A stretch of DNA of 63,300 nt, filler included, from Perkinsus chesapeaki ATCC PRA-425 (GCA_013115145.1; 14 parts of 14 records of this genome joined end to end with filler, not necessarily neighbours in it), one strand, 5' to 3'. Positions 6,161 to 57,256 are shown, numbered from the whole stretch's first letter. Notes: generated from the sequence alone by a model not told the origin. Numbers and translations: made by a program.

Positions 6161-6182
6161 ATAGGGGGCCCCTATTAGGGGC
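6161..6182. repeat. 7-8-7 inverted-triplication scar
   Basis: ATAGGGG|GCCCCTAT|TAGGGGC (8-mer ATAGGGGC). Confidence 0.9.
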
Positions 6183-6381
6183 CCTATAATACGGTATCAT
6201 TAAAACCACATATATCACATTATCTTGCTCAGAGAGAACCTTAAGACCCATAAGATATTCCGTGATGCCTTCATTAAATGGAGTTCTAAGAGGTTCTTGA
6301 ACGTGACTGCCACAGACAAACCGAGATCAGAGTCTTCCGAAGGGTCGAGTAGGTCATCACATGAGGATTAAAGTTTAATCA

Positions 6382-8403
6382 TTAAACGACGCATGAAATA
6401 GACGCGTAGGCAAGAGTCTTGCCTAGGTTCAAATCTAGGTCGGTGGTCTTGGAAACCTCCGAGTCATCAGCCAGCCAGGCCCTGATTCCACCGACAAATT
6501 CATCCACGTTGATCTCTCCGTCGCCATCTCGATCAGCGTGGAATAGCAGATCAACCTCAGATGGGGATAGCTTAACCACACTCTCTTTCGTAAGCTCGCA
6601 GATCAGTCTACGGAACTCGCCCAGGTCAAGACCGCCGCTGGCATCATCGTCCAAGTTACGGAATGCGCCTTTAAGCACTTCTACGAGGATCTCAACCTGA
6701 TTCGCCACGAGCCAGTCTAGCTGGTCCACCAACCAAGAGCTGCAACCATGAGCTTATATGAGCCGGACCAAGATTGACCACCGACCCCAGCGCCAAGAGG
6801 CAGCTGCGAAGCTCCGCTGCATCCCTCGTCCCAGAGAGATCCCTGTCAAACATACGAAACAGCTGGTCCAGTGACGTTCCTAGCGATCCTTCCAGAAGTA
6901 CGCGCCGCATGTACAGAGCAGGTACGATTGCCCCTAGAGCTTGGTCCCCAAGTATAGACAGGAACAGCTCGCAGTCGGCGGCACTGGTGCCGGTTAGCAC
7001 CGCGAGTTGGGAGGGCTTCAAGCTCCGGCCGAGGCCACGGAACCGCTCAGGGTCGGCTGCCAGAGCCCGGCCAATCGGAGTCTCCACGGCATGCTCGGTG
7101 AGATACTCCCTTTGCAGATAGAAGCGCCATCTTCGCAGGCTCACCCGGCTCGGGCTATATTCCATCTCTTCTAGAAGGTGGCTTAGCTGGTATACCTGAT
7201 GAAATCCATGGCACCGTCGACGGCCTATTGAGCTTGACCTCGTCCTGACTAAGATGGGCGCATTGAACTACTCCAAAAGTTCTCATGGAAGATGCGAACT
7301 GCTCTACGGAGACCCATTGCACTGGACCTTGCTGAACAACTGTCGAATCGAACCTAACCCGTCTTAATAATAGTATCAAGCTCGCATCTTCAGATTGTCT
7401 TTATTGACGGAGATACCTTGCATTTCTATACCGTATTACGTCTTCCTTTTCTCCAGCTCAGCCACTGCCCATTCGATAGAAGCAGGAGAGTGTTCCCATG
7501 CTCCACATAGCCACCAGCTAGCGGCACTCCAGGCGAGGCCGCCACGATGAACTCTACTCGACTCGATCTTACCGTCCCTACGCCAGTAGGATCGATCAGC
7601 CTTTGGAACCTTCTCAGCTCCACCAATGAATAGTCGAAGCCTGCCTCCGAAATAGATTCCGGAACCGCTGCCGTGATGACCAGACCAGAGGCACTTGAGT
7701 CCGGCTTGGCCAGTAAAGCGCACCCGTCCTCCTCTACAAGGCACTTCTGGAGCTCCGCCAGTTGCTGCTGAGCCGTTCGGATCTGCGCTCTGCTCATCAC
7801 ACCAACCAAGCAGAGCATCATGTAAAACTCCAGAGTGCTCTCCGGCTGCCCCACAAGCCTTGTGACGGTATCTTCGACAACCTGCCTTACCCCAGGGACT
7901 CCATCCCAGGCGAAAATCTGGTCAACTTCGCTCCCTCTTTGCTGCATAGCGGCAGAAATCAGGCCGATCGCCGAAGTGCTTTTCTCCTCCACAAAACGGA
8001 CTATTGTACTTAGATCTAGCGACTCCAACTGATACATAGCCGCAGCGCTTCTCAAAAGGCAGCTCAGCAGCCAATCACAGGCGATCTCCGACAGATACGA
8101 GACCAGCGCGTTCCCGCCTATTTTCAAATCCGAAGGTGATCTCGTCGCCGCTTGCACATCCTCAGTGACTGGTGCTGCCGCCTTCTCCAATAGCACCTCG
8201 ACCATTCTACGAGAGATGACCTCCTTGCCTCTACAGGCGGCCCTAAGGTCAGCAACGGCCTCAACGGCATGACCAGCTCGCCACGATTTGCCGAGCAATA
8301 CTGCCATCAGGGTTGTACATTCGGGAACAATTTTTTTCTTCCCAAGGATTGTTCCAAGGAATAAATGGGAAGAAACAAAAGTTGGTATTGTTCCCGGGAA
8401 CAA
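6382..8403 (-). CDS. Multi-EF-hand calcium-binding protein, spliced; 5' end uncertain
   Basis: EF-hand loops DRDLSGTRDAAE, DDDASGGLDLGE and DRDGDGEINVDE across ORFs 6382-6732, 6692-7165 and 7426-8403. Confidence 0.75.
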
Positions 8404-9508
8404 TGTAAAAAAGGGAACAAAAAAGCCGCAGGCTTGAAATTCTTTTTACGATTGATTTTTTGGTGAGAAATGAGGCTTAAATTGTTATTTTGCAGCATAA
8501 TTCCCGCTGATGAAAAGGGTGAGATCAGTTCCTCTGCTCAGTCTGTTCAGGTTTCTCTGGAGGGAACTTTGGTTACGGTCCGTTGGGGAAACGTTCGTGC
8601 AATATGCATNNNNNNNNNNNNNNNNNNNNNNNNNNNNNNNNNNNNNNNNNNNNTTAATTAATTAANNNNNNNNNNNNNNNNNNNNNNNNNNNNNNNNNNN
8701 NNNNNNNNNCGCAGCGACAGGATAGCGATACCACAACCGTACGGCTCCAAAGTGCTTGTTTGACTGTAAGCCGTACTCGTCCGCGACTACTGGAACATAG
8801 CCATGAGGGAGGAAGACCTCTCCTTGAAGGGCATGAGGCTCACTTGGCATATATAGCCAGATTTGATGATTGTTTGGAGAGGCGATCGGAGGGGTAGGCC
8901 AGCGGGGTGATAGTCCAAGACTAATGTCGATGTCGTGAAGGCCGGTAATAGGATGAAATCAACGCTATGTCAGACCACCATCTCAAAAACTTCAACTTCC
9001 TACAAGGAAGTTAGTAGTAAGCCAATGGGTTGAAAGTAATTCAGATTAATACCATTCATTCATCTAATCGATGTAGGATGCCCTCGGCACGAGACTTACT
9101 CACTACTCAGTCAACACACCTCTACACTCTAACTCGGTCCTTTAGTTGGTTGTAGGATACAGTTGTCGGATATGAAATATCGTCCACATGATAGTGAACG
9201 CCTTAGGTTGGCGGTCATTCTGAAGTATTACTCAAGCAACGCAACGCTTCTTTCTTGAACGAAGAAGACGATAATGAAGAGAGTTAATGACAGGAATTAC
9301 GACCCGCCAAGTATTCACTGCGGCGTGTGAGAATTGAGAATGTTAACACACGGAAAGCAGCGGTTTGAAACAACCCGTGCATGAGTTATTTCGGCGAGCA
9401 GTCGCATGGCTGTAATATCGTTAACTACAAAATACGAATTGTATTATTTGCCCTGTTGTCGTACATTATTACGCGGCTACGACAGACAAAGCTCACAAGA
9501 AGCTAATG

Positions 9509-9874
9509 CTAGCACCTTTTAAACCATCTAGAGCCCTCGTCACCAATAGACCAGCCATCTAGCTCAGGGTGATATACAAACTTATCCCACCGTTCCTGTC
9601 TCCAGTAGCGAGATCCAGTAGGGAACTTGGCTTCCGACGTGAGAGCTAACAAGTTCCTCTCCGGATCGAAGAAGTACCCAGCTTCTAGGGACGACCACTG
9701 ATATTCGAAGTGGATTCGTTCAAACAGAATGATGACAATTTGGTGATAGTCAAAGATGAGTCTCTCCTCGCTGAAGGATGGCAACCCATGGCAGTATTGG
9801 CGGCCTTCGAAGGGGACACTGGCCACCCATATGAAAGTGCCCAGAGCGAAAGATAACAGCTGCAGGATGAACAT
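9509..9874 (-). CDS. Small secreted protein, family A
   Basis: Hydrophobic N-terminus from the ATG at 9874. Shares PFEGRxYC, WDKFVYHPELDGWS and SRWFxRC with 11232-11594. Confidence 0.75.
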   Translation of the reverse strand: MFILQLLSFALGTFIWVASVPFEGRQYCHGLPSFSEERLIFDYHQIVIILFERIHFEYQWSSLEAGYFFDPERNLLALTSEAKFPTGSRYWRQERWDKFVYHPELDGWSIGDEGSRWFKRC

Positions 9875-10626
9875 GATTGTGTGGGAACAAAAGCTTGACA
9901 ATACGGAGTTCCATATTGACCTTAAAGGGTGAATGTGAGAACACAGAGTACCAGACTCTCTTTACTAGCATCCTGACTCCGCCACACGCAGCGCAAAGCG
10001 CAAGAATCATAGCGCTTACTTAACTGTGTTTCGCGTGCAAGTTAGCATGGTTATGCAGCACGCTTCATGGAGGGGTGCAGAGAAGTCCAATGTGGATATG
10101 TGTTCAAGGAGACAGTTCATTTGACATTCCTGAGATAATTTCGCCGAGAATAGCTCAGCATGCTCGGACATTCTGGCCCAACGACAAATCCGCATGATAG
10201 ATCGTAAGGTGTTAGAGTCCTGCACGGACCGTGCAATGCACGGCGTGCATCGGAAATGATAGGAAGAACTCTTGGATATTGCAACATCGAGGGTGTATAG
10301 AACGTGCAGATGAGGAGCCGATAGGCTATGATATAAAGCGACGAAGCTTCCTCATGAAGTCGGTAGTTCCAGACAGATCAGGTTATCTCACATCACTTCA
10401 TTAGGCCTCTCTCATGTTACCTATGCTTAGCCTGTGCTTTCTCGGATTTGTTTAAGTGATGACCATCGAGATAAAGTCATGCGTTTTGAGTTCGATTCGA
10501 AGGTATTGGGGTCGCAATAAGTATCACGACCATACTCATGCAAGAGTGCTTCATGTCGTACTACATAGGAAGCTTAGTATTCGCACATATGCATAAGAAG
10601 CTGAATTCCGTAGGATCCGCGGGCAT

Positions 10627-10846
10627 TTGCATGCAAAATACCTACGTTTTGCACGTGTAGTGTATTTCGCGCAACGCACTTCACATTTCACGCAGTGCGC
10701 GAAATGGCGCCTATTGAGTCAAGTGCGTTTGCGCGCAATAGCGATTTGCACTCGTGCAAATGCGCAAGTGCGTGAAGGGAGTTCGCGCAGTTCGCGCTTT
10801 TCACTACGTGCATTGCTGCAGTGCACGCAATGCGGGTGCATCTCCA
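10627..10846. repeat. Patch dense in TGCA/GCGC motifs, possibly a decayed MITE
   Basis: Many TGCA, TGCG and GCGC words in about 220 bp. No clean TIR/TSD pair found. Confidence 0.35.
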
Positions 10847-56484: not shown

Positions 56485-56806
56485 TTCTGGATTCACTGCT
56501 AGCCGGTCATTGTGACTGCCCCACCCCTTCTGTGGGTGATGACAAGCTGAATCGTTCTGTCGGGGAATTGGTGTCAACGCATTGCAATTACTGCTGCCAC
56601 AATCCTTCCCAGATCGAAGTTCTGCCANNNNNNNNNNNNNNNNNNNNNNNNNNNNNNNNNNNNNNNNNNNNTTAATTAATTAANNNNNNNNNNNNNNNNN
56701 NNNNNNNNNNNNNNNNNNNNNNNNNNNGTGTTGCTCTAGATAGTGGCCGCTTAATTGCTGCTTTGCTCAGTTCTCTTCGACAAGACGTCGAAGAAGTGGC
56801 CGGAAA

Positions 56807-56997
56807 ACGAAATTGTTTTTTTAAGTGGGCGAAATTGAAGGCATCTCCTGGGTTTGGATGAAATTAAAAGTTCAAAGACGAAACTGAATGTCCCAAGCGC
56901 GAACAAGATCTTTCTATTTCGGATTCGGACCTTCAACTTCGCTCGCCGTCACGAAATTGATGTTCCCAAGGACGAACTAGATATTGAAAAGGTGTAG
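56807..56997 (+). repeat. Dispersed CGAAATTGA repeat, copy 2
   Basis: Aligns along its length with 46238-46428. Confidence 0.85.
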
Positions 56998-57130
56998 ATA
57001 CGAACTGAGGTAGATTCTCGCAGCTGATTCTAACCGACAATAAGCTCAAGTAGATCGGAGCATCACGTAGATGCTTCGGTCAGTAAGTTGCGATCAGCAC
57101 TTCTGATTTGAAAGTGAAGGGGCATCGCTC

Positions 57131-57152
57131 GTCGCTCTGAGCGACTCGCTCA
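57131..57152. repeat. 7-8-7 scar
   Basis: GTCGCTC|TGAGCGAC|TCGCTCA. Confidence 0.9.
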
Positions 57153-57234
57153 GCCTCGCGACAGCCTCGCTCAGCCTTCCCAGTGGACTGATGAGCGTGA
57201 TTGTCCAAGGACAAGGATAAGGTTCCAACCAGTC

Positions 57235-57256
57235 CGGTAGAGTCTACCGGGTAGAC
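57235..57256. repeat. 7-8-7 scar
   Basis: CGGTAGA|GTCTACCG|GGTAGAC. Confidence 0.9.

Follow-up and report, generated by a model that had tools for sequence, protein, structure and literature searches.

A stereotyped 22-bp scar in the Perkinsus chesapeaki genome and its probable origin in hAT transposon excision

What process leaves one and the same short arrangement of bases at dozens of sites in a protist genome? The question is raised by a stretch of 63,300 nucleotides from Perkinsus chesapeaki ATCC PRA-425 (GCA_013115145.1), in which 14 parts of 14 records are joined end to end with filler and which is referred to here as the window. The recurring motif, called a scar below, spans 22 bp in a 7-8-7 arrangement consisting of the first seven bases of an 8-mer X, the reverse complement of X and the last seven bases of X (X[1-7]+rc(X)+X[2-8]). 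A first-pass annotation of the window interpreted such motifs as footprints of hAT transposons excised through hairpins on the flanking DNA. [quoted passage not shown] As judged from sequence, the scars are very probably excision footprints of hAT elements that had duplicated X on insertion.

Geometry and frequency of the scar

The whole window was scanned for X[1..k-a]+rc(X)+X[b+1..k] with word lengths k of 4-14 and end offsets a and b of 0-2. At k=8 with one base lost per side (a=b=1), 28 exact motifs are present, which is the sole peak above chance-level short words; k=7 yields one motif, k=9 yields none, and k=8 with offsets (0,0), (0,1) or (1,0) yields none. Exact copies are found in none of 40 order-4 Markov shuffles. 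The first-pass annotation had proposed a peak at k=8 as a check of its pattern, and the peak obtained is sharp and confined to a=b=1. The 17 exact and six one-mismatch starts that it listed are all present, with 11 further exact scars (4211, 5379, 6366, 10229, 35035, 36009, 45660, 51882, 52217, 52439 and 52907) and three further one-mismatch scars (35439, 51681 and 53339) raising the counts to 28 and nine. The gaps between joined parts (for example 8610-8709) hold an artificial spacer of 12 bases, flanked by runs of N and carrying stops in all frames, and this spacer inflates the palindrome counts at k=4.

A census that allowed mismatches, with overlaps removed and with the AT-rich inverted repeat at 58950-60300 and the poly-G/C tract at 49850-50400 excluded, covered 60,236 bases. 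It revealed 28, 9, 14 and 24 sites with zero, one, two and three mismatches, compared with means of 0, 0, 0.3 and 2.5 in 20 shuffles; 51 sites with at most two mismatches are present in ∼60 kb, where 0.3 are expected. The net number of scars is ∼72, or one per 0.8 kb, a density 3-4 times higher than the one per 3-4 kb first claimed, and the added bases (14 x 72) make up 1.7% of the sequence. The mismatch series from zero to three constitutes an age series. Clustering is slight, with ten gaps shorter than 120 bp where 5.2 are expected (P=0.025).

The bases at the centres of the two palindromes are highly constrained. The 12 core constraints are matched at 30 sites, of which 28 follow both rules for the centre base and two follow one; the chance of following both is 1/16. 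All 14 added bases can be derived from the 8-mer, and no element-derived bases are present in the footprint. Perfect palindromes with arms of at least 7 bases display the same preference across the window, as 110 have a one-base loop compared with 6-9 for each other loop size from 0 to 5.

Origin of the scars

The 22-bp motifs all represent insertions of 14 bases into an 8-base site X. The exact scar at 45660..45681 lies in a repeat with two tandem paralogs that are 14 bases shorter, one of which has the 8-mer once, and the region of the one-mismatch scar at 51681..51702 has a paralog at window positions 3-106 that aligns with 14 gap letters. Further comparisons relied on Logan contigs rather than raw reads and covered 24.9 of the 63.3 kb in five runs (X1-X5) from two samples; the window itself may derive from X1. 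In runs X3 and X5, a paralogous contig has neither the one-mismatch scar at 35439..35460 nor the adjacent MITE. The 8-mer site at 16742..16749 is empty in the window and in X1; in X2 and X5, which derive from sample S2, a 14-base insertion lies behind 16742 in the locus's only full-depth contig and, together with an A>G change at 16748, produces a perfect 7-8-7. Six exact scars (10229..10250, 12812..12833, 15962..15983, 23038..23059, 34714..34735 and 35035..35056), the one-mismatch scar at 25540 and a long palindrome at 35295 recur without change in long second-study contigs.

The isolates also provide a measure of pace. Full-depth single-base differences number at least ten or so in 8710-18970 and, among those listed, are absent from the long contigs of 22139-36766, giving ∼1 new scar per ∼10 single-nucleotide polymorphisms (SNPs) in 25 kb between isolates, a ratio from a small sample. 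One new scar beside ∼10 SNPs in 25 kb suggests that the scarring process is recent. Two state pairs are seen, namely occupied and empty for the MITE and empty and scarred at four other sites. In the S2 runs, the main contigs of 8710-18970 are ∼3x deeper than those of 22139-36766 (∼300 vs ∼100 in X2), and depth in X1 is even; the difference may reflect copy number or ploidy.

The proposed mechanism begins with an insertion that would convert the site into X-element-X. The transposase would then nick one base into each flank and seal the flank as a hairpin, so that x1..x7 would be followed by the complement of x8 at the left end, and x2..x8 would be preceded by the complement of x1 at the right end. 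Host nucleases would cut both hairpins open at a good distance from the tip, so that the left flank would end in a 3' tail starting with rc(X) and the right flank in one starting with X. Such tails would be complementary across the whole TSD and could anneal, after which the excess would be trimmed and the join sealed. A single product would dominate because all pairs of openings with summed lengths of at least 8 converge on X[1-7]+rc(X)+X[2-8]. Tails that join at another short overlap would instead produce a long, single-centred palindrome, a second class of footprint.

Several features of known hAT systems are consistent with this proposal. The hAT transposases generate hairpins at the flanking ends (PMC5499845), Ac/Ds footprints contain palindromes centred on the complement of the element-adjacent base (PMC5873905), and Ac/Ds joining occurs mostly at microhomology (PMC5873905, PMC1978519, PMC4561436). 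In the window, 28 of the 30 core matches have the complement of the element-adjacent flank base at the centre on both sides, and the 8-bp basis is evident from the confinement to k=8 and from the empty paralog with a single 8-mer. Homology extends one base beyond the 8-mer in 22 of 56 half-sites, compared with 14.3 expected by permutation (P=0.015), and no excess is present at offsets 2 and 3; this is a weak sign that annealing selects the join. The ∼72 scars compare with one intact MITE found in the window. Such an excess of scars over resident elements would be expected if few elements remain mobile and every jump leaves a permanent mark outside intact exons.

The first-pass annotation had proposed one dominant footprint, and the 7-8-7 motif is indeed the main but not the sole footprint. 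Among long palindromes with arms of 12-33 bp, 11 are odd-centred, with one unpaired base, and one is even-centred. One of them, at 35282..35347, joins a left half-site with an 8-nt tail to a right half-site with a 27-nt tail through a 2-bp overlap; it is wholly explained by two tails of one 8-mer and is identical in X1, X2 and X5. At 48966..49025, arms of 22 bp are followed by a decayed right tail and an exact right half-site, and at 47580..47604, arms of 12 bp are followed by five bases of the expected right half-site; the two-tail cases at 48981 and 44847 are decayed and that at 47580 is partial. The remaining odd-centred palindromes, in which no second half-site is seen, have arms of 33 bp (2816..2882), 31 bp (51948..52010), 25 bp (43931..43981, 55845..55895 and, decayed, 52125..52175), 24 bp (45301..45349), 17 bp (46157..46191) and, in a nested case, 14 bp (55555..55583). 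Such lengths suggest hairpin opening as far as ∼30 nt from the tip. No 7-2-7 footprint, the classical two-base class, is seen in the window compared with 1.0 expected by chance, intermediate classes are not enriched there, and 7-1-7 is seen five times compared with 1.3 by chance, one instance being poly-C and one lying within the scar at 18588. Plain 8+8 duplications (2) and 7+7 joins (19 vs 21 in one shuffle) show no excess.

Loss of classical non-homologous end joining was considered as the cause of this uniformity and judged unlikely from the congener P. marinus, which is listed with Ku70, Ku80 and Lig4. Perkinsus marinus is scored 1/1/1 for the three proteins in a supplementary table (PMC6635534) and is included in Ku tree files (PMC11936186), and transgene integration in this species looks non-homologous (bioRxiv 2021.06.11.447996). 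The retention of Ku and Lig4 in P. marinus, together with apparently non-homologous integration, makes hairpin opening far from the tip, with the TSD overlap as attractor, the better guess for the source of uniformity. A broader picture is favoured by a slight balance of judgement, in which Perkinsus may open transposon hairpins far from the tip and anneal the target-site tails despite its relatives' Ku and Lig4. The resulting stereotyped +14-bp mutation, accounting for ∼1.7% of sequence, would still be running between isolates, lengthening introns and killing other transposons.

A candidate for the mobile element is present among the scars. A combined TSD and terminal inverted repeat (TIR) scan of the window yielded a single match, at k=8, with k=9-11 empty; the match is a 768-bp MITE at 35487..36254 with perfect 13-bp TIRs (CAGAGCTCTGCAA) between left (35479..35486) and right (36255..36262) copies of the 8-bp TSD GTTGACGG. 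Short TIRs and an 8-bp TSD are of the hAT type, and an empty paralog of the MITE (joint 35445-36254) is present in X3 and X5. The TIR begins with CAGAG, a start that resembles hobo/Hermes. No copies of the TIR beyond chance are present elsewhere in the window, and metagenome scans with the MITE end and with P0001, a Perkinsus olseni protein related to the transposase described below, gave no matches. The MITE contains scars at 35660, 35747, 36009 and 36131. Collapsed contigs of other MITE copies (35555-35986) align across the scars at 35660 and 35747 without 14-base gaps. Some scars were therefore likely copied along with the MITE, and scar counts in repeats can consequently overstate independent events.

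A broken multi-exon gene for a hAT-like transposase is located at 4328..6118 (+), with putative introns at 4827-4871 and 5307-5375. It is 49% identical to P0001 over 4691-5314 and 40% over 5443-5628, in two frames, and the frame change is attributable to the putative 69-nt intron together with the exact scar at 5379..5400 in coding sequence. The transposase copy that the first-pass annotation placed at 4175-6118 is itself broken by a scar and so, in its present form, cannot act as an active source. In the ESM Atlas, P0001 is nearest to DUF659/ZBED1 hAT clusters (score 0.92, 171/256 features, with 10/10 best named matches in agreement). A hAT-type transposase is a DDE enzyme whose RNase H core carries a helical insertion, with a dimerisation motif at the C-terminus. 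The comparison of the transposase with P0001 also contains the motif-like strings TDN, CLSH, TRW, DPR and ERFFS, presumably hAT transposase motifs. The C-terminal exon gave no hAT lead, and no longer relatives of P0001 were found.

A number of observations weigh against hAT excision as the origin of the scars. Pfam returns no hAT match for the window transposase or P0001, the fold of P0001 predicted without an alignment is too poor for use (predicted local-distance difference test, 45.5) and has no Foldseek match, and no TIR pair surrounds the transposase within 2500-6700, so the element ends were not found; the link from the MITE family to the scars is indirect. X4 shares its sample with X2 and X5, and the insertion at 16742 is not listed for it. 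The comparison of strains or haplotypes that the first-pass annotation had suggested provides empty and scarred alleles at 16742 but, in the 25 kb compared and among the matches listed, no site both occupied and scarred. A second half-site accompanies only three or four of the 11 long palindromes, and the 8-mers show little bias in target choice (T at position 2 in 27/74, P=0.06). The dominance of 7-8-7 applies to detectable classes, since excisions that are precise or that delete into the TSD escape the scans. Finally, published Ac/Ds footprints from plants, S. cerevisiae and C. albicans are varied and mostly short (PMC5873905).

Four other origins can be considered, all of them improbable. 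The scars are unlikely to come from a different superfamily of cut-and-paste elements that makes 8-bp TSDs (MULE, Merlin or one undescribed), even though the MULE Muta1 forms flank hairpins and 8- or 9-bp TSDs (PMC5499845, PMC5225508), P. marinus harbors Merlin-like open reading frames (ORFs) with Merlin TSDs being 8-9 bp (PMC8101967), and the palindrome at 51948-52010 partly fits a 9-mer. The window contains no 9-mer class, with zero motifs at k=9, and likewise zero at k=8 with a=b=0, the footprint looked for in the case of a MULE. For Muta1 a hairpin of 43+43 nt is reported, which indicates a cut at the element end and hence predicts even-centred palindromes, in contrast with the 11 odd-centred and one even-centred found; of its TSD-bearing excisions, ∼90% are precise (PMC5499845, PMC5225508). 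The TIRs of the resident MITE are short, whereas MULE TIRs are typically >100 bp (PMC5499845), and Merlin in Perkinsus was found to have neither TIRs nor TSDs (PMC8101967). Slightly less likely still is short-range replication template switching, or snap-back synthesis during break repair, that would run 8 bases backwards and return in the absence of any transposon. The +14 change can be expressed as such a switch, the one-base homology excess suits it equally, and no occupied allele of a scarred site is seen in the 25 kb compared. Switch lengths should vary, however, and k=7, k=9 and the other end offsets are empty; the unpaired centre base follows the hAT rule in 28/30 sites, the footprint at 35282 requires two hairpin ends of one 8-mer, and an element with an 8-bp TSD is located among the scars.

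Lower in probability again is a hit-and-run process, in which a hAT-like nuclease acts without lasting insertion, either because the insertion is reversed at once or because the enzyme is domesticated. Scars outnumber visible elements by ∼70:1, and at 16742 only the empty and scarred states are seen among the matches listed. Hairpinning needs both copies of X beforehand, and hence an insertion and gap filling, the resident MITE has a filled TSD, and the comparison of states covered only 25 kb of two samples. An artefact of library or assembly, such as a transposase-made library or an amplification chimera, is the least credible, being very improbable: the window is gapped with artificial spacers and support comes from contigs, not raw reads, but the six exact scars unchanged in long second-study contigs already largely refute an artefact, and both the age series of zero to three mismatches and the avoidance of intact ORFs argue against it. 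Excision of hAT elements remains the explanation to which the evidence points most strongly.

Scars among genes and other elements

The distribution of scars is consistent in part with the first-pass claim that they lie outside intact exons and outside a Helitron-like ORF. The Helitron-like ORF is free of the 51 scars with at most two mismatches, where 5.3 would be expected (P=0.005), as is the gene-rich interval of 28.8-34.1 kb (4.5 expected, P=0.011, for an interval picked post hoc). Coding sequence of transposons is not spared, as scars occur in the hAT-like transposase (5379 in coding sequence and the two-mismatch scar at 5317..5338 in a putative intron) and in the reverse-transcriptase frame of a long interspersed nuclear element (LINE) at 49351. 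Other transposons appear to have been inactivated by scars. The Helitron-like ORF at 37337-43612 is uninterrupted over ∼2,090 codons with a weak Helitron_like_N match (E 6e-5); free of scars, it is either young or under selection. The LINE remnant at 47900-51700 (-) consists of reverse-transcriptase and endonuclease pieces and harbors several scars, including exact ones at 48430..48451 and, within the reverse-transcriptase frame, 49351..49372. Ty3/Gypsy-like integrase pieces at 57895-58953 (+) and 62246-63124 (+) have no scars with at most two mismatches inside.

The first third of the window also contains a calcium-binding protein gene with EF-hand domains at 6421-8394 (-), which is 45-54% identical to P0002 of P. 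olseni. Frame changes near 7230 and 6735 leave no room for introns, and the gene is possibly decayed or differently modelled. The transposase piece and this host gene have one protein match each, both from P. olseni, with 50% and 53% identity. An exact scar at 6366..6387 lies just beyond the 3' end of the calcium-binding protein match, and another at 6161..6182 is nested with overlapping partial scars (6154-6190). At lower coordinates are a one-mismatch scar recovered by the pattern scan at 4013..4034 and an exact scar at 4211..4232 that is clustered with the two-mismatch scars at 4124 and 4177. Further host gene pieces on the minus strand encode a zinc-binding dehydrogenase (25564-25932), a serine hydrolase (30025-30339) and a PfkB kinase (31843-33727). 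The one-mismatch scar at 25540..25561 lies in a putative GT-AG intron of the zinc-dehydrogenase-like gene.

The remaining scars are spread across the window. Those with one mismatch are located at 17778..17799, 18091..18112, 18588..18609, 51758..51779 and 53339..53360. Exact scars are present at 21024..21045, 34210..34231, 36707..36728, 47075..47096, 47806..47827, 50968..50989, 51882..51903, 52217..52238, 52439..52460, 52907..52928, 57131..57152 and 57235..57256, within the MITE at 35747..35768 and 36009..36030, and at 51915..51936, where the scar is nested in an older one (51912). The 14 scars with two mismatches start at 4124, 4177, 5317, 11874, 17671, 28717, 34439, 35660, 36131, 44761, 47203, 55465, 61499 and 61537, and the 24 with three mismatches, for which 2.5 are expected by chance, lie within 4124..61558. 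A 1.1-kb AT-rich contig between gaps at 59055-60184 is unlike the rest of the window in consisting of an inverted repeat with arms of ∼480 bp, and is possibly organellar or an assembly fold-back.

Comparison with known excision systems

Genomes normally do not reveal the excision of DNA transposons, since footprints are short and varied, and consequently the frequency with which elements leave a site, as distinct from entering one, is difficult to gauge in nature. With a footprint that follows one pattern, is dated by its mismatches and still shows its 8-bp target, the rate of excision, the preferred targets, hotspots and purifying selection could be counted directly. If the proposed origin is true, Perkinsus provides a genome-wide, datable count of cut-and-paste excisions together with the original target sites, and the hairpin-opening step would differ from that described for plants and Candida, where opening is near the tip. 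The scars could also serve as isolate-level markers for Perkinsus, a genus of shellfish parasites.

Footprints with palindromic (P) nucleotides left by hAT elements are long known, as in Ascot-1 and Tam3, where they are produced by hairpin opening; no account of such uniformity and density was found in print. Full-text searches listed no fixed 7-8-7, no genome-scale arrays of hAT footprints and no Perkinsus scars, though subscription papers may show 7-8-7 as a minor product. To the known systems the window adds an intact MITE with an empty site, an isolate-polymorphic scar, a two-ended long-tail class and the Ku and Lig4 of a congener. Hermes/hobo-type hAT elements cleave one base into the flank. 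These elements and their MITEs share with the Perkinsus system a short TIR beginning with CAGAG, the 8-bp TSD and a weak preference for T at target position 2, along with flank hairpin chemistry (PMC5499845). Unlike in Hermes/hobo, the Perkinsus transposase is too divergent for the Pfam hAT models and its link to the MITE is putative.

A close likeness is to Ac/Ds, in which palindromic P-nucleotides centred on the element-adjacent complement, an 8-bp TSD and joining at microhomology are all described, and arms as long as 20 nt have been reported from S. cerevisiae; in C. albicans, 128 clones comprised 28 footprint types with at most three P-nucleotides (PMC5873905, PMC1978519, PMC4561436). In contrast with Ac/Ds, one product with a full 8-nt tail dominates in Perkinsus, 7-2-7 is absent, the longest tails measure 33 nt, and a natural genome carries the scars in fixed form at approximately one per kilobase. 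The MULE Muta1 resembles the Perkinsus system in its flank hairpins and in having 8-bp TSDs among its products, and differs in its 9-bp TSDs, long TIRs, even hairpin and mostly precise excision (PMC5499845, PMC5225508). Hairpin opening that yields P-nucleotides, as in the scars, is also a feature of V(D)J coding joints (PMC1978519). While V(D)J joining and the Ascot-1 and Tam3 systems diversify one locus, the Perkinsus scars converge on a single product at many loci.

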